A DNA stretch of 64,000 nucleotides, from the NCBI GenBank assembly GCA_038065415.1, contig JBBTRA010000004.1:26092-90091 (forward strand), in the 5' to 3' direction. The position numbers and the translations under genes were made by a program. The notes under the pieces were generated by a model. The model had not been told where the DNA came from. It saw nothing but the letters and a program-made list of their open reading frames with translations, and searched no databases. Within the stretch, counting starts at the first letter, position 1. Each line of letters opens with the position of its first letter. The DNA is from Patescibacteria group bacterium. GTDB lineage: Bacteria; Patescibacteriota; Minisyncoccia; Phycocordibacterales; PALSA-1337. Positions 2,980-61,160 of the stretch are shown here, piece by piece.

Positions 2980-3309
2980 ATGACACATTTTGTTCCAAAA
3001 ATTGTAACTGCTGTATTCTTGAGTCTTCTCATTAATGCCCCATTTGCCATCGGGGAGTTCCTGACAAGGGAGATCACGGGTCCGCGTGCGTATTTTCCGT
3101 TCAAGCTCATGGTGGGGCTCTGGCTCCACATGGCACTTCTAGTGTTTCTATTGATTCCAATAATCCAAACTTCTAGAGACGGCAGCGCGAGCAAGAAACC
3201 AATCCTCCTCAGCATACGGTTACTCATTCTCGGAATCTTGGCATGGGCCTGGATAACACTAATTATTGATCAGTGGCCCTGTTTTTTCCTTGGGGGTAGT
3301 GGTTGCTAA
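2980..3309 (+). CDS. hypothetical membrane protein
   Basis: Hydrophobic ORF with 3-4 predicted TM segments. The start was moved to the internal Met at 2980 to avoid overlap with the tRNA. Confidence 0.3.
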   Translation: MTHFVPKIVTAVFLSLLINAPFAIGEFLTREITGPRAYFPFKLMVGLWLHMALLVFLLIPIIQTSRDGSASKKPILLSIRLLILGILAWAWITLIIDQWPCFFLGGSGC

Positions 3310-43117: not shown

Positions 43118-44260
43118 CTACGCCTCATCCCCACCCTCAGGCTTCTCGAGCATCGCTACCTCTATACCCGGTGTCTCGCCCGTAATGCGCAAAACATCTT
43201 TGTCTACCTTCTTGAGTTCCTTGCCGGAATTGTTGTAGTGATTGACCACGGTTGAGAGCGAGGTACCAAGCTTCACATGATATTCCTCATACTTCTTGAG
43301 GTGCGTGCCGAGCTGGCCCACATGTTTGACGATATCCTTTGCTGTCTCCTCGATGACCATCGCCTTGAGTCCTTGGAGCACTGTCTGTAGATATGCAAGG
43401 AATGAGGTCGGCGATACGATGATCACCTTATACTTGCTCGCCGCGCGCTGGATGAGGTTGTCGGTCTCCTCGAGAGATGCACCAATCTTGTTAACCAAAA
43501 GATCATAGTAGATAGCCTCGTGAGGTATGAACATGAATGCAAAATCCATCGTGTTTTCTGCTGGACGGATATACTTGGATGTTTCCTGGATACGGATCTT
43601 GAGATCTCCGACAAATGCCTTCTCGAGCTTGTCGCGTTCGGCAGGATTCTTCTCTTCGACCAGTTTGTTGTAGTTTTCGAGAGAGAACTTGGAATCGATC
43701 GGAATAACCTTGTCTTTCACGAAGACGGCCGCATCGACGATCTCCCCATTCTTGAAGGCATACTGCATCTGATACTGACCCGGTGCCAACACATTCTTGA
43801 GAAGCGTCTCGAGATAGTACTCTCCGAGGATCCCACGATGTTTTGGATTCTTGAGGATGTCCTGGAGATTCTGGAGCTGATCCGCAAAAGACACCACCTG
43901 CTTGTTGGTCTCATCGAGCTTGGTGAGACCTTGAGTTACTTCGCGGATGAGCTTGGACGACTCAGAGAGCTGGGAGCGCATAGACTCCTGCATATTCTTG
44001 GACGACTCATTGATCTTACTATCCACGGTCTTGGTGAGGTCACCAACCTTACTGTCGACCGTGCGCGTGAGATCCTTGGTCAGATCCCCCACTTTACGAT
44101 CCACAGTACGAGACATCTCGTTGATTTGCTCGAGGATGAGCTTGAGGCCGGTGTCGTCCTTGGGAGCCTCCGGAGCGGCTTTCTTGCGCAAAAAAAGAAC
44201 GCCAAGCACAACATTGGCGAGGATGGCGACGATCACGAGGATGATAAGGAGAGTGGTCAT
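43118..44260 (-). CDS. rmuC: DNA recombination protein RmuC
   Basis: An N-terminal TM segment, a coiled-coil and the RmuC C-terminal nuclease-like region ('FMFIPHEAIYYDLL'). Confidence 0.75.
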   Translation of the reverse strand: MTTLLIILVIVAILANVVLGVLFLRKKAAPEAPKDDTGLKLILEQINEMSRTVDRKVGDLTKDLTRTVDSKVGDLTKTVDSKINESSKNMQESMRSQLSESSKLIREVTQGLTKLDETNKQVVSFADQLQNLQDILKNPKHRGILGEYYLETLLKNVLAPGQYQMQYAFKNGEIVDAAVFVKDKVIPIDSKFSLENYNKLVEEKNPAERDKLEKAFVGDLKIRIQETSKYIRPAENTMDFAFMFIPHEAIYYDLLVNKIGASLEETDNLIQRAASKYKVIIVSPTSFLAYLQTVLQGLKAMVIEETAKDIVKHVGQLGTHLKKYEEYHVKLGTSLSTVVNHYNNSGKELKKVDKDVLRITGETPGIEVAMLEKPEGGDEA

Positions 44261-44299
44261 GGGTATAGTCTACTAGGGTTTAAGCGTATTTACAAAATG

Positions 44300-44555
44300 C
44301 ATCGCACCCCACTTTCAACAGCTTTTGCGTGTCAGTTGCCTTCCCGCTCCCCATTTAGTATCATTCCCTATGCAGAAGTCGTCACAGTTACCACCTGTGA
44401 TCGGGCGCTCAGAGGAGCCTCGAGTCTTTGAACCCAATCTGTATCAAATGAGTGTCCGCTTAATAGTGGAAAACTCGGTGGAACCGCGAGGAACGATGTT
44501 CTCCGCCCGAGTATGTGCGTGAATTTTCATGCATATACTCGGGCGCATTTTATTA
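44300..44555 (+). promoter_or_regulatory. T-box riboswitch-like leader of thrS (Thr ACC specifier candidate, T-box sequence, terminator)
   Basis: 'GGTGGAACCGCG' (44477..44488) matches the T-box consensus AGGGUGGNACCGCG. It is followed immediately by an 11-bp terminator stem (44504..44514 / 44535..44545) and a T-run. A short hairpin tcacag-ttACCAc-ctgtga at 44382..44400 places ACC followed by A in its loop. Confidence 0.55.
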
Positions 44556-44582
44556 GCAAAGCCTTATCAAATCCCATCACCA

Positions 44583-46330
44583 TGAACCCAGACCACCTCC
44601 CCCATCTCCGCCACACGCTTGCCCACCTCTTGGCAGCCGCAGTACTCGAGCAATATCCAGATGCAAAGCCGACCATCGGTCCCGCCATCGACAACGGCTT
44701 CTACTATGACTTCCAATTCTCGACCCCGATCGCTGAGACTGATCTCAAGGATATCGAGAAGAAGATGCGCAAACTTCTCCCTTCATGGAAGACGGTCGAG
44801 CACAAAGAAGTCTCCAAGGAAGACGCTTTGAAACATTTTGAGGCCAATCCATTCAAGCTCGAACTCATCAATGAAATCGCCGAGAAGGGTGAAAAGATCA
44901 CCTTCTATACTATGGGCAAGTTCACTGATCTTTGCCGTGGTGGACATATCGAGAGTCCAGCAAAAGAGATTCCTTCAGACTGCTTCAAACTCTCCAAGAT
45001 CGCGGGCGCATATTGGCGCGGTGACGAGAAGAATCCTCAGCTCACCCGCATCTACGGACTCGCGTTCGCGACCAAGGATGAGCTCGAGGGTCACCTCACC
45101 ATGATGAAAGAAGCCGAGAAACGCGATCATCGCAAAATCGGCAAGGAAATGGATATCTTCGAGTTCGACGATGATGTAGGTCCTGGACTTCCCCTCTGGC
45201 TGCCAAATGGTGGCGCTCTCATAGAAGAACTCGAGAAACTCGCCAAGGAGACAGAATTCAAGATGGACTATGTCCGTGTACGCTCGCCACATCTCGCCAA
45301 GGAGGCTCTCTACAAAACCAGCGGCCATCTACCCTACTATGAGGATTCTATGTACCCTCCGATGGAATACGAGGGCGGCAAGTATTATCTCAAGGCAATG
45401 AACTGCCCGCACCACCACAAGATCTATGCGGCTCGCCCTAAGAGCTACCGAGACCTTCCGCTCAGGCTGGCAGAGTACGGCACCTGCTATCGCCATGAGA
45501 AATCCGGTGAGCTCTTCGGTCTCATGCGTGTACGAACTCTTCAGATGAACGATGCGCATATTTACTGCACCGAGGAACAGTTCGCTGATGAATTCCGTGC
45601 AGTGAATGAGATGTATCTCAAATACTTCAAGATATTCGGCGTGGACAAATATGTCATGCGCTTCTCCACTCATGATCCCAAGAGGCTTGGAGAGAAGTTC
45701 GTCAACGAACCAGAGCTCTGGAAAAAGACTGAGGACATGGTCAGGAAGGTGCTCATCGACTCCAAGATCCCCTACATCGAAGTACCCAATGAAGCCGCCT
45801 TCTACGGCCCCAAGATCGATGTACAGGTCTGGTCTGCAATCGGCCGTGAATTCACCTTAGCAACAAATCAAGTCGACTTCGCTGTACCAGCCCGCTTCGG
45901 CCTCACCTATACCGACAAGGATGGCGGTCTCAAGACACCGCTCTGTATCCATCGTGCACCGCTCGGCACTCATGAACGCTTCATTGGTTTCCTCATCGAG
46001 CACTATGGGGGCAACTTCCCACTCTGGCTCGCGCCTGTGCAAATCAAAGTCATTCCTGTGCTCGAGGCACATTTTGAGGAGGCGCAAAAAGTCCACAACG
46101 CCCTCCGAGCTCTCATGATCCGTTCCGAGATTGATCTCTCGAACGACGGCTTCGGCAAGAAGATCAGGAATGCAAAAAATGAGCGTGTACCATATACCAT
46201 CATTCTCGGAGACAAGGATATCGCGGCCGGGAAAGTTACCTTGGAAAGTAGGGATAAAGGCCAGGTCGGACAAGTTTCGATCGATGAAGTATTGAAAACG
46301 CTCGAAGCCGATATCAAAGAAAGAAAATAG
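44583..46330 (+). CDS. thrS: threonyl-tRNA synthetase lacking the N-terminal TGS (N1) domain
   Basis: Editing-domain 'HTLAHLL', class II motifs ('FRDLPLRLAEYGTCYRHE', 'RVRTLQMNDAHIY') and a C-terminal anticodon-binding domain. 582 aa from MNPDH. Confidence 0.85.
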
Positions 46331-50589: not shown

Positions 50590-50680
50590 TTTTTGATGTC
50601 CTTTGTTTGTTTTGCTAAAAAATTTATAGCATTTTTATTATCATTTGTCAATAACACCCCTCCTTTGCTACAATATCCCC

Positions 50681-51988
50681 ATGTCAAAAGACGCCAAAAA
50701 ACTATCAACAGACTCCTACAAGGGAGTCCGCGACTTCTTCCCTGCCGAAATGGCCGTCGAGAAGTACATTTTCGACATCTGGAGGAAGACCGTCGAGAAG
50801 TATGGATACGAAGAATACGGAGCGTCTGTGTTGGAACCAGCAGAGCTCTATCAGGCAAAGTCCGGCGAAGAGATCGTCAGCCAGCAAACTTATACCTTCC
50901 AGGATCGCGGCGAGCGCCAAGTGACGCTCCGCCCCGAGATGACTCCGACACTCGCGCGTATGGTGGCAGCCCGTAAGCGCGAACTCACCTTCCCTCTCCG
51001 TTGGTATTCCATACCTAACCTCTTCCGCTATGAGCAACCTCAGCGTGGTCGCGTACGTGAACATTGGCAGCTCAATGTTGATATCTTCGGCGTCGATTCT
51101 ATTTCTGCGGAGATCGAAACCATCAACATCGCCTATGACATCATGAAGGCGTACGGACTCAAGGATACCGACTTTGAAATCCGTATCAATAACAGAAAGC
51201 TGATGAACTACGTCACCAGAGATGTATTCGGGCTGGATGAAACTACCGCACAAACGATCGCCAAGCTCATAGACAAGAAAGACAAGGTCAAACAAGAATG
51301 GTTTGAAGCGGCCGCTACAGAAGTGCTCGGTGACAAAACAAAGGCATTCCTTACACTGCTCAATAGCAAGAACTTCGAGGAATTCACCACCAATCTCCAG
51401 CAGACAAAAGAAGAACATGTTGGACTCAAGGAGATTCGTGCCGTCATTGCTGGCCTCGAACGCCTCGGAATCACCAATGCCCGTTTCGATCAGACATTGA
51501 TGCGCGGCTTCGACTACTATACCGGCATCGTCTTCGAGATATATGACTTGAACCCCGTCAACCGTCGCTCAGTATTTGGAGGAGGACGATATGATGACCT
51601 GCTTTCCCTCTTCGGCAATGACAAAGTTTCTGCCGTTGGTTTTGGCGCTGGTGACGTCATCGCTCGTGACCTCATGGAGACATACGGAACCCTTCCCAAG
51701 AATGAATCTCCGGCCGATCTGGCTCTCATCGTAGTTGGAGACCAGAATACCCCGTATGCACTCGAGCTCGCGCAGTCACTCCGCAACCAGGGTATCAAAG
51801 TTGCTGTAGATCTTTCGAACAAGAAAGTAGGTGATCAAATCAAGAATGCAGACAAGCGCGGAATTCTCCGGATCATTTGTATTGGTGATGAAGAGACAGG
51901 CACAGGTACGCTCAAAATGAAGACATTGGCGAGTGGCGAAGAAGTTTCCGGTACTGATACAGACATCGTAAAAATATTGACAAAATAG
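50681..51988 (+). CDS. hisS: histidyl-tRNA synthetase
   Basis: Class II motifs 'GVRDFFP' and 'LRPEMTPTLARM', plus the HisRS 'RWYSIPNLFRYEQPQRGRVREHWQLNVDIFG' and an anticodon-binding C-terminus. Confidence 0.9.
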   Translation: MSKDAKKLSTDSYKGVRDFFPAEMAVEKYIFDIWRKTVEKYGYEEYGASVLEPAELYQAKSGEEIVSQQTYTFQDRGERQVTLRPEMTPTLARMVAARKRELTFPLRWYSIPNLFRYEQPQRGRVREHWQLNVDIFGVDSISAEIETINIAYDIMKAYGLKDTDFEIRINNRKLMNYVTRDVFGLDETTAQTIAKLIDKKDKVKQEWFEAAATEVLGDKTKAFLTLLNSKNFEEFTTNLQQTKEEHVGLKEIRAVIAGLERLGITNARFDQTLMRGFDYYTGIVFEIYDLNPVNRRSVFGGGRYDDLLSLFGNDKVSAVGFGAGDVIARDLMETYGTLPKNESPADLALIVVGDQNTPYALELAQSLRNQGIKVAVDLSNKKVGDQIKNADKRGILRIICIGDEETGTGTLKMKTLASGEEVSGTDTDIVKILTK

Positions 51989-59372: not shown

Positions 59373-60158
59373 TTATTTCCGCCGACGGATACGCTGCGCG
59401 ATGGCCAGCGAGCCGATCCCGAGCAGAGCCAGAGACGAAGGCTCAGGAACTGCCACGGTCATGTTGTCGAAGTACACATCGTAGTTACCATTCACTGGAC
59501 CGAAGTTGTACGTTTCAGCGAACATCGTGGTGAACTGAGCCGCCAATGGTCCCACCACTGCCTTGGTATAGACCGAGGCGTTGTCGAGACCATACGTGAG
59601 ACTCGTCAACCCATCATACGACATCGAGAGAGTATGCCACCCTCCCGTAACGGGCGCAGCCAGATCAACCCATCCATTCACTGTACTTGCGTCCCAGACG
59701 CGCCAGGTCGTAGATATGTTGGAAGCCAACGTATTGAAGGGATCAGCCGGATCGAAGCGCCGGAAACCCATGATGGAGTAGTCGGCACCCGTTTCGTCAC
59801 CCACCAATCCCGTACGACCCCAGATATCCCCGCGGCGCAACGTGTTGCCCGTAAGGAAGTCTGAGGAGATGTAGATCTGCCCAGTCAATGTCCACGGCCC
59901 CGTGACGAGCGCCTGGTGTTGCCGACCTTGGGTCCGATAGAACGTCGAGTCATACGGCGAAGCTTCGGTGACGCCACTCGCCGTGATCTTGAGACGATTG
60001 TCGCCATCGAAGAACGCTGACGTGAAAGACGCAGGTTCGCGACGATCCGTGACCCATCCTGGGTCAATCGAATTGAATGGGTCCGAATAGGGTGCAGCGT
60101 AAGACAGTGATGCTGCAAAAAGCGCCACAGCGGCGCCAATGAGGAGGTTTTTCTTCAT
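59373..60158 (-). CDS. PEP-CTERM sorting-domain secreted protein
   Basis: A signal peptide and the C-terminal 'VPEPSSLALLGIGSLAIAQRIRRRK' (PEP motif, TM helix, basic cluster). Confidence 0.6.
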   Translation of the reverse strand: MKKNLLIGAAVALFAASLSYAAPYSDPFNSIDPGWVTDRREPASFTSAFFDGDNRLKITASGVTEASPYDSTFYRTQGRQHQALVTGPWTLTGQIYISSDFLTGNTLRRGDIWGRTGLVGDETGADYSIMGFRRFDPADPFNTLASNISTTWRVWDASTVNGWVDLAAPVTGGWHTLSMSYDGLTSLTYGLDNASVYTKAVVGPLAAQFTTMFAETYNFGPVNGNYDVYFDNMTVAVPEPSSLALLGIGSLAIAQRIRRRK

Positions 60159-60308: not shown

Positions 60309-61013
60309 TTACCGACGACGAATCCGCTGCAAGAACACCAGTGATCCGATGCCGAACAGAGCAAGGGATGAGGGCTCGGGCACCAATACGGCCATATCAA
60401 CCTGAGCCACTCGTGCACCACCTGAACCAGCACCAAGAGCAGTTGCATACAGGCTGAACGAGTACAAGCCGAGGGCGTTGAGATCACCTCCAGCGAACAC
60501 TATGTTCTGGGAATTTTGGCCAATGTTGTTGAAAGGAGCAAATACCCCCGAGAGTCCTTCAACGCCTGCTCCGTTGGCTGTAGTATTGTCGCCGTAGGAA
60601 TTGTCGAGATACGTCGTGAGAACGTTGATGGTGAACGGTCCGAATCCTGGACCATTCGCCGACAGATAGAAATCGAAATCATCGAGTTTCTGGAGGCCGC
60701 CGTTGGAAGGATCGGTGTTGATGCTGAACTCATAGTTCCACTTGGCTCTCACCGGCCCCGCATAGCTGCCTGGCGAGAACAAATAGGTGCCAGCGCCATT
60801 GTTAGGGGTACTGCCATCAGAACGATCTTTCGCACGAAGCGACAGATTGAGATTCAGATTTGGGTTGAAGCTGGTGACCCAGCCAGTATTGGGATTGCCA
60901 CCGCCATAAATGGCGACCTGCGTGTCATCATAGACAGTGGCAGCTGAGGCAGGAACCGCGGACGAGATGACCAAACCGCAGACGACGAGGGACAGGAGCA
61001 TGGACTTCTTCAT
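60309..61013 (-). CDS. PEP-CTERM sorting-domain secreted protein (second, divergent)
   Basis: The start is at MKKSMLLSL. The C-terminus reads 'VPEPSSLALFGIGSLVFLQRIRRR'. Its own terminator (gaagcaagc-tttcc-agcttgcttc + T6) follows on the minus strand. Confidence 0.55.
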   Translation of the reverse strand: MKKSMLLSLVVCGLVISSAVPASAATVYDDTQVAIYGGGNPNTGWVTSFNPNLNLNLSLRAKDRSDGSTPNNGAGTYLFSPGSYAGPVRAKWNYEFSINTDPSNGGLQKLDDFDFYLSANGPGFGPFTINVLTTYLDNSYGDNTTANGAGVEGLSGVFAPFNNIGQNSQNIVFAGGDLNALGLYSFSLYATALGAGSGGARVAQVDMAVLVPEPSSLALFGIGSLVFLQRIRRR

Positions 61014-61160
61014 AGGTAGTACGGGATTGTTTTCAGTTTTTTCGGTTTTCAAAGTGCGCATGCCACACAGCGTGCGCTCCTTTCTCAATATGGCACGGTA
61101 CAACAAAAGAAACAATCTTGCTGGATTGTTTCTTTTGTTGCGTCGAGTTGTCCTACTCAC

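Follow-up and report, generated by a model that had tools for sequence, protein, structure and literature searches.

Among T-box riboswitches, a long Stem I that docks on the tRNA elbow is said to be needed by transcriptional forms for fast tRNA capture, and an ultrashort Stem I is tied to slower, reversible translational control (PMC7583486, PMC7778990). The T-boxes of actinobacterial ileS genes, whose Stem I is short or "ultrashort", are translational; their description goes back to Sherwood et al. 2015 (cited through PMC7583486 and PMC10651847). Here we describe a leader RNA 5' of the threonyl-tRNA synthetase gene (thrS) in a 64,000-nt stretch of contig JBBTRA010000004.1 from a Patescibacteria group bacterium; this whole stretch is referred to as the window, and all unlabelled coordinates are positions in it. 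The leader occupies ~44370-44551 on the plus strand, ~180 nt from its 5' end to its U-run, and is very probably a T-box riboswitch, one that attenuates the transcription of thrS. It combines an ultrashort Stem I with an intrinsic terminator, an atypical pairing according to the T-box literature examined, and the conservation of this combination directly tests the rule linking Stem I length to mode of action.

Comparison across related loci carries much of the argument. We gathered 80 thrS loci by protein similarity to the threonyl-tRNA synthetase (ThrRS) of the window, and three of these from the candidate phyla radiation (CPR), L001, L002 and L072, have a clearly homologous leader. Metagenomes were scanned with the pattern ACCA-N70-100-GGTGGAACCRCGA-N5-35-CCGCCCGAG, which returned 15 loci, 14 of them distinct and one a duplicate. 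In all 14, ACCA lies in the loop of a 6-bp hairpin, a -10 box stands at a fixed upstream distance, and a terminator with a U-run follows on the 3' side. The class comprises 18 distinct leaders, that of the window and 17 others in Patescibacteria-like metagenome-assembled genomes (MAGs) and metagenomes, and thrS lies 3' of the leader in the window and in 15 of the 15 other distinct loci with evaluable downstream sequence. Identity of ThrRS to the window protein falls from 83% to 42% among the class loci, indicating that the class spans deep divergence. A covariance model built on the compact leader class (R1) gave 88-120 bits for members and 15-30 bits for canonical T-boxes of Chloroflexi and Peregrinibacteria; the window leader scored 115 bits (E ~3e-27), with no other match in the 64 kb.

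RF00230, the Rfam T-box model, was the sole Rfam family to match a 451-nt region around the leader when searched at a relaxed threshold, at 24.3 bits (E = 0.0017). This match runs the whole length of the model apart from 87 Stem I positions, which are deleted, and it is confident over Stem III, the T-box sequence and the antiterminator. Other members of the class scored 21-35 bits on RF00230 where they were detected at all. The T-box 12-mer by itself is not significant, with two matches against 1.3 expected when one mismatch is allowed. The element as a whole is significantly more than chance would produce, as RF00230 alone among Rfam families matches it, the whole leader has a folding z-score of -6.2 against shuffled sequences, and the architecture recurs 5' of thrS in 17 other distinct sequences with compensatory changes. 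We regard the leader as a true thrS T-box belonging to a compact subclass, which falls below the Rfam cut-off and is typical of Patescibacteria-like genomes. Its parts are as follows.

44370-44376, plus strand: 5' strand of helix P0, AUGCAGA, predicted to be the extreme 5' terminus of the RNA; partner at 44438-44444
44377-44381, plus strand: junction strand J0/1, AGUCG (class consensus RRUYG, from the 18-sequence alignment)
44382-44400, plus strand: ultrashort Stem I, UCACAG/CUGUGA, 6 bp with the 7-nt loop UUACCAC (covariation)
44390-44392, plus strand: specifier ACC in the Stem I loop, with the following purine A at 44393 (sequence)
44401-44423, plus strand: hairpin 2, at the position of Stem II, variable, 3-9 bp (RNAfold)
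44424-44433, plus strand: hairpin 3, in the place of Stem IIA; GU..AC in the window, where it has one C/A mismatch (alignment)
44434-44444, plus strand: CCAA junction (class CYAA, F-box-like) and 3' strand of P0, UCUGUAU (alignment and pairing)
44445-44454, plus strand: linker ending in the purine-rich AUGAGUG (aligns to "AGuG" of RF00230; conserved in the 18-sequence alignment)
44455-44470, plus strand: Stem III, UCCGCU/AGUGGA (RF00230 alignment and covariation)
44473-44512, plus strand: antiterminator with the T-box sequence (RF00230 alignment, high posterior probability)
44504-44551, plus strand: intrinsic terminator; 19-bp hairpin (44504-44545), then CA, then UUUU at 44548-44551 (terminator scan)

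Over all modelled pairs, 86.7% of cells in the MAFFT alignment were paired, compared with 31-47% when the partners were slid by one to three columns. Taken over the MAFFT and model-based alignments, the second of which leans towards the model's own structure, 87-89% of cells were paired, and none of 500 shuffles reached any of the observed pairing measures. Covariation was found in all six pairs of Stem I, all five modelled pairs of Stem III, three to four pairs of P0 and two of the three modelled pairs of hairpin 3. RNAalifold, run on the MAFFT alignment, independently recovered Stem I, Stem III and the antiterminator helix A1; P0 was not called there and rests on pair counts and on the minimum free energy (MFE) fold of the window leader.

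The 5' decoding domain has the same order throughout the class. From 5' to 3' it consists of P0 (xCAGA), RRUYG, Stem I, one nucleotide, hairpin 2, one nucleotide (usually A), hairpin 3, CYAA and P0 (UCUGx), followed by a variable linker ending in AUGAGUG, by Stem III and by the antiterminator/terminator region. Stem I is a 19-nt hairpin in every member, with double changes at 6/6 pairs and 98% of cells paired over the 18 sequences; comparison of the window with L001, L002 and L072 yields the versions UCACAG/CUGUGA, UCGCAG/CUGCGA, UUGCGG/CCGCAA and CCGUGG/CUACGG, which are related by compensatory change. The loop of this hairpin reads NN-ACC-A-N in 18/18 members, the three protein-retrieved loci included. 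A reading of the window made from its letters and open reading frames (the sequence-only reading) had taken the thrS leader for T-box-like, with ACC and a following A displayed by a truncated Stem I, and the comparative data strongly support this for the hairpin and its loop. The hairpin TCACAG/TTACCAC/CTGTGA, the T-box sequence and the terminator that it named are all present, at 44382-44400, 44477-44488 and 44504-44545, respectively.

P0 closes the domain. Its inner four pairs are 100%, 100%, 100% and 78% paired over the 18 sequences in the MAFFT alignment, and the change from AGA/UCU to GGA/UCC is compensatory in four sequences, with G-U in a fifth. Without constraints, the first 85 nt of the window leader fold at MFE into a 7-bp P0 (AUGCAGA/UCUGUAU), Stem I and hairpin 2. 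P0 and J0/1 together form a run of five purines (AGAAG, AGAGA or GGAAA among members). Alignment columns U10 and G12 of J0/1 are invariant over the 18 sequences, and G12 has the leading C of CYAA as its partner in 17/18 of them, or in 18/18 on the model-based realignment. On the opposite side, columns C64, A67 and U69 of the junction and the P0 3' strand are invariant, and C65, A68 and C70 nearly so. Hairpin 2 is found in every member with differing length and loop sequence and has no conserved S-turn sequence or internal loop. Hairpin 3 has 2-4 bp over the class, mostly three to four, with a loop of 3-5 nt that is often GNRA-like; 75% of its cells are paired in the MAFFT alignment and 88% in the model-based one. 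By position, hairpin 3 and CYAA resemble Stem IIA and the F-box, with the would-be IIB strand pairing with the 5' end (P0) instead. The pair counts on two alignments and the MFE fold of the window leader both include P0, so that the four-way junction it closes with Stem I, hairpin 2 and hairpin 3 is well supported.

Other tertiary or long-range features were sought in this domain. Inspection across the members showed no conserved complementarity between loop and linker of the IIA/B type; in the window leader the UUUG loop of hairpin 3 is complementary to CAAA of the linker, but the other members lack this match, and such a pseudoknot was rejected as a conserved feature. A K-turn between P0 and Stem I was also discarded, as its tandem G-A consensus is not matched by the RRUYG and CYAA strands. 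The junction may contain an S-turn-like or UAA/GAN-like motif. We infer roles for the junction strands: speculatively, the five-purine P0/junction run together with the CYAA strand is a candidate groove-binding motif that would replace the contacts of the S-turn, pseudoknot and platform. Pairing of CCACC, which consists of the last specifier-loop bases and the first base of the stem (within 44386-44395), with GGUGG of the T-box sequence (44477-44481) was dropped as a class feature, loop position 7 being A or U in most members. The two segments are complementary in the window and its closest relatives, and RNAfold uses the pairing in the terminated form; it is probably incidental.

The 3' half has the parts of a standard T-box discriminator domain. 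The purine-rich end of the linker stands 5' of Stem III, where critical purines are found in T-boxes (PMC7583486). The T-box sequence GGTGGAACCGCG (GGUGGAACCGCG) lies at 44477-44488. Helix A1 of the antiterminator pairs (A)CUCGG at 44474-44478 with CCGAG(U) at 44507-44511, the 7-nt bulge UGGAACC occupies 44479-44485 with UGGA (44479-44482) positioned for the NCCA 3' end of tRNA, and helix A2 spans 44486-44506. When the antiterminator segment is folded in isolation, its MFE structure (-12.9 kcal/mol) is this canonical arrangement of A1, bulge and A2. RNAalifold adds one more A1 pair, which lies beyond the search pattern and shows G-C/A-U covariation in six sequences. The terminator hairpin, with CATTTTATT / CAUUUUAUU directly 3' of it, has a folding energy of -34.7 kcal/mol, and an equivalent hairpin and U-run were found in 18/18 members. 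The 5' arm of the terminator overlaps the antiterminator at 44504-44511, so the two folds are mutually exclusive. The UGGA bulge and the alternative between antiterminator and terminator had been foreseen in the sequence-only reading, which would have been undermined had no mutually exclusive antiterminator been drawable; A1 and A2 provide one. The terminator stem, put there at 11 bp, is in fact 19 bp long.

The terminator helix stops 37 nt short of the thrS ATG in the window, and 130-190 nt short of it in L001 and L072. A helix so placed, with a U-run on its 3' side, argues that control is transcriptional and not translational. Furthermore, as the leader is divergent from the upstream gene rmuC and the hairpin stands 37 nt before the thrS ATG, the hairpin neither terminates another gene nor occludes the ribosome-binding site.

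The analysis directly shows the sequence elements, the exclusive folds, helices that are conserved and covary, and a link to thrS without exception among the evaluable loci. Binding of tRNA, sensing of its charging and termination in vivo would follow by analogy with the established T-box mechanism; with a discriminator domain of the standard T-box kind in the 3' half, this mechanism is the most economical reading. The RNA would start at ~44370, and its decoding domain would fold into the four-way junction, with the threonine codon ACC and the A after it exposed in the apical Stem I loop. There tRNA-Thr(GGU) is expected to pair through its anticodon with ACC, and the NCCA 3' end of uncharged tRNA-Thr, with a predicted discriminator U73, to pair with UGGA in the T-box bulge. 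This contact would stabilize the weak antiterminator (~-13 kcal/mol) over the much stronger terminator (~-35 kcal/mol), resulting in read-through into thrS. Charged tRNA-Thr would be unable to make the bulge contact, and the terminator would form.

Several points weigh against a functional thrS T-box of this kind. The 24.3 bits obtained with RF00230 compare with a curated gathering cut-off of 93; the Rfam scan suggested in the sequence-only reading thus gave no match at the curated cut-off, and what it did give was the full-length alignment below the cut-off with Stem I deleted. The elbow-binding distal platform, which is generally required in transcriptional T-boxes (PMC7583486), is absent from the leader, and neither a K-turn nor an S-turn Stem II nor a IIA/B pseudoknot is recognizable in it. 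The U-tract is short (UUUUAUU). In the 14 metagenome sequences, ACCA, the T-box core and the 3' A1/A2 strand are fixed by the search pattern itself; due to this imposed invariance, the weight rests on the hairpin context of ACCA, on the helices outside the pattern and on the three protein-retrieved loci. Five CPR loci with ThrRS 68-77% identical to that of the window (L003, L004, L006, L007 and L009) have no T-box-like leader in the region upstream of the match at 3001 (614 in L006), and the distribution of the class is patchy even among close relatives. Finally, no tRNA-Thr was found in the window, in the 10 kb past its end, in the strain contigs, in 33 CPR loci or, with ARAGORN, in any of the 99 loci gathered, and EF-Tu, a marker of the usual tRNA-Thr/tuf cluster, did not appear among the examined loci.

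Some of these same points would be expected of a decayed T-box, in which loss of Stem I had disabled tRNA sensing and left a constitutive partial terminator: the low RF00230 score and lost platform, the patchy distribution among close relatives, and the view in the literature of a long Stem I as a requirement for transcriptional T-boxes (PMC7583486). A remnant would not, however, be expected to keep its short form in 18 distinct sequences despite ThrRS divergence down to 42-50% identity. The invariant specifier loop and the compensatory changes in Stem I, P0, hairpin 3 and Stem III are a signature of purifying selection, and an unregulated terminator of -35 kcal/mol before an essential single-copy gene would be costly. 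Decay is therefore quite improbable. A working T-box for a different tRNA is scarcely credible. The window loop UUACCAC does contain the overlapping triplets CCA (Pro), UAC (Tyr) and CAC (His), but only ACCA is constant over the class and the varying flanks remove UAC and CAC; CCA is followed by A, U or C, whereas ACC fits the downstream thrS in every case and is then followed by the conserved purine expected after a specifier. The canonical thrS T-box of Anaerolineales also aligns ACC-A at the specifier position.

Control without a T-box was considered in two forms familiar from E. coli. Autoregulation of the E. coli thrS type, with ThrRS binding an operator that mimics the tRNA-Thr anticodon arm, draws on the superficial likeness of such an arm to the 6-bp stem and 7-nt loop found 5' of thrS. 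The loop nevertheless presents the codon ACC and not a threonine anticodon (GGU, UGU or CGU), and the hairpin lies ~180-190 nt before the ATG with a terminator between them, not beside the ribosome-binding site. An operator would also leave the T-box sequence, Stem III and the antiterminator/terminator switch unexplained, and we regard it as very improbable. Ribosome-mediated attenuation of the E. coli thr operon type would require a leader peptide in which threonine codons are sensed, for which a 65-codon open reading frame (ORF) with a TTG start at 44325-44522 overlaps the leader and has the terminator on its 3' side. This sole leader ORF has a single threonine and no threonine run, and it starts upstream of the predicted transcription start; what is conserved is RNA helices with compensatory changes and not a reading frame, and the Rfam leader-peptide families have no match in the region. 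Peptide-based attenuation is extremely improbable, and a T-box attenuating thrS remains our preferred reading.

Around the leader, the locus contains the following features.

43118-44260, minus strand: rmuC (Pfam RmuC), the upstream neighbour, transcribed divergently from thrS
44336-44364, plus strand: promoter-like site TTGCCT, 17-nt spacer, TATCAT (sigma-70-like consensus scan)
44582-46330, plus strand: thrS, the presumed regulated gene (translation, Pfam, 42-83% identity to the genes 3' of other leaders)

The intergenic gap between rmuC and thrS measures 321 nt (44261-44581), somewhat more than the ~280 nt given in the sequence-only reading. The promoter-like site places the predicted transcription start at ~44370-44372, and in 18/18 class members a -10-like hexamer was identified by eye 7-10 nt 5' of the P0 5' strand. 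Translation of thrS starts at the ATG at 44582, and an in-frame ATG at 44513 is not the start. The product is a ThrRS of 582 aa with editing (SAD), class II core and anticodon-binding domains by Pfam; the N-terminal TGS domain is not among its Pfam matches, which are limited to these three. In three class members (L082, L083 and L094), the ThrRS match starts only at about residue 178 of the window protein, and from sequence the editing domain also seems to be missing there. The window also encodes hisS (Pfam tRNA-synt_His, 50645-51988), ~55 nt from its upstream gene and without a T-box match, which leaves thrS as the one synthetase gene of the window to carry such a leader. The only curated-threshold Rfam match noted for the window is one tRNA-Asn; no T-box appears at that level. 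Elsewhere in the window, two adjacent proteins (59373-60158 and 60309-61160) have weak matches to PEP-CTERM/exosortase sorting domains (PF07589), which are unexpected in a reduced CPR-like genome.

The closest ThrRS relatives, at 68-80% identity, come from MAGs labelled Patescibacteria, Paceibacterota, Taylorbacteria and Saccharibacteria, and the next, at 55-63%, from Bacteroidota, Verrucomicrobiota and Anaerolineae. The T-box had been taken in the sequence-only reading as a lineage clue to Firmicutes, Actinobacteria or Chloroflexi; this would mislead, as the nearest relatives are Patescibacteria/CPR MAGs. The window sequence also occurs in a 243-kb contig of the groundwater MAG GCA_964357625.1 and was assembled from the 0.1-um fraction of Hainich groundwater.

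Other thrS loci gathered in this work showed further arrangements. In a Peregrinibacteria locus (L014, 2755-2937), the thrS leader is a T-box to which RF00230 gives 44 bits. Its Stem I is longer and its specifier, read by eye, is ACU-A; the CPR would thus have a second T-box form, unlike the compact one. In L069, GGTGGTACCGC was considered as a second T-box candidate and set aside as a chance match inside a coding region. In an uncultured-bacterium MAG (L073, 2581-2920), direct repeats of ~100 nt (TTTAGGGCGATTCCTCGGGAATTTA...GGCTTAGCCTTGAGAATTTGAAACTAAGG) fill the region 5' of thrS. In eight Anaerolineales/Chloroflexi loci (L028, L038, L045, L046, L051, L052, L062 and L068), a tRNA gene stands 5' of the thrS leader; in L046 this is tRNA-Val(GAC) at 2508-2581, ending 10 nt before the T-box, and the distance is larger in some of the others. 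Of these tRNA-preceded loci, only L045, L046 and L051 have a T-box above the Rfam cut-off, the rest having the T-box sequence motif or a weak model match.

Beyond the assignment of the leader to T-boxes, the data raise the question of whether its architecture is new. It is a serious possibility, which we put forward tentatively, that these leaders are an undescribed structural class of T-box, widespread in Patescibacteria, in which the long Stem I platform, the S-turn Stem II and the IIA/B pseudoknot have given way to a four-way junction of ~75 nt, made up of P0, the 19-nt Stem I and two small hairpins, and the RNA still drives co-transcriptional control of termination. Full-text literature searches for T-boxes with Patescibacteria, candidate phyla radiation or Saccharibacteria returned nothing; a terminator-type ultrashort T-box may have been noted before. 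The short-Stem-I model of the T-box database TBDB was run only on Actinobacteria and on sequences already detected by the Rfam model (PMC7778990), and from these published methods we infer that TBDB would miss the compact class, as would annotation at the Rfam cut-off.

If the structural class is real, elbow docking and the known Stem II lock would be dispensable for a kinetically controlled T-box, and the four-way junction would be the smallest natural tRNA-decoding module. At ~180 nt, the leader is a compact natural scaffold on which tRNA sensing can be studied structurally and engineered. Judged from sequence, Patescibacteria (CPR), with reduced genomes and few known regulators, would also use tRNA-sensing riboswitches. 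The compact class separates "ultrashort Stem I" from "translational control", and its interest is mainly for riboswitch specialists, in that it points to control of transcription despite an ultrashort Stem I.

Three described T-box systems bear comparison with the compact leader. The canonical class I T-boxes that match RF00230, represented here by the Anaerolineales thrS leaders of L045, L046 and L051, stand before the same gene and show the same specifier, ACC-A. They share with the compact leader the UGGA-ACC bulge, the purine run, Stem III and an A1/A2 antiterminator overlapping an intrinsic terminator. In contrast, the compact leader is without the ~90-nt Stem I, the K-turn, the internal Specifier Loop, and the AG bulge and distal loop that make up the platform for the tRNA elbow. 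Its specifier is in an apical loop, P0 formed from the 5' end closes a four-way junction, and the S-turn Stem II and IIA/B pseudoknot are not recognized. RF00230 separates the two groups, with 21-35 bits for the compact class and 94-108 bits for the canonical leaders.

The glyQS T-boxes are similar to the compact leader in being naturally minimized and transcriptional, with parts of the decoding domain dispensable (PMC7583486). They keep the long Stem I and its platform and lose Stem II, whereas the compact class does the opposite to Stem I. The minimization of glyQS is explained by its GC-rich GGC/GCC codon-anticodon pair (PMC7583486), while ACC/GGU in the compact leader has one A-U pair.

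The class II T-boxes of actinobacterial ileS genes (M. tuberculosis, N. farcinica) resemble the compact leader in their truncated Stem I without an elbow platform, their apical specifier and their canonical discriminator domain. This likeness had been remarked on in the sequence-only reading; it holds for the truncated Stem I and does not extend to the terminator and the different junction architecture found here. The ileS elements need a K-turn in Stem I, a long S-turn Stem II and a 21-nt IIA/B pseudoknot (PMC10651847), where the compact leader has a variable hairpin 2 without a conserved motif, a hairpin 3 loop of 3-5 nt, no covarying pseudoknot and closure by P0. The compact leader also belongs to thrS rather than ileS and to a different phylum. 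Lastly, the ileS T-boxes expose or sequester a Shine-Dalgarno sequence, and the compact leader instead has a terminator and U-run 37 nt before the start codon.

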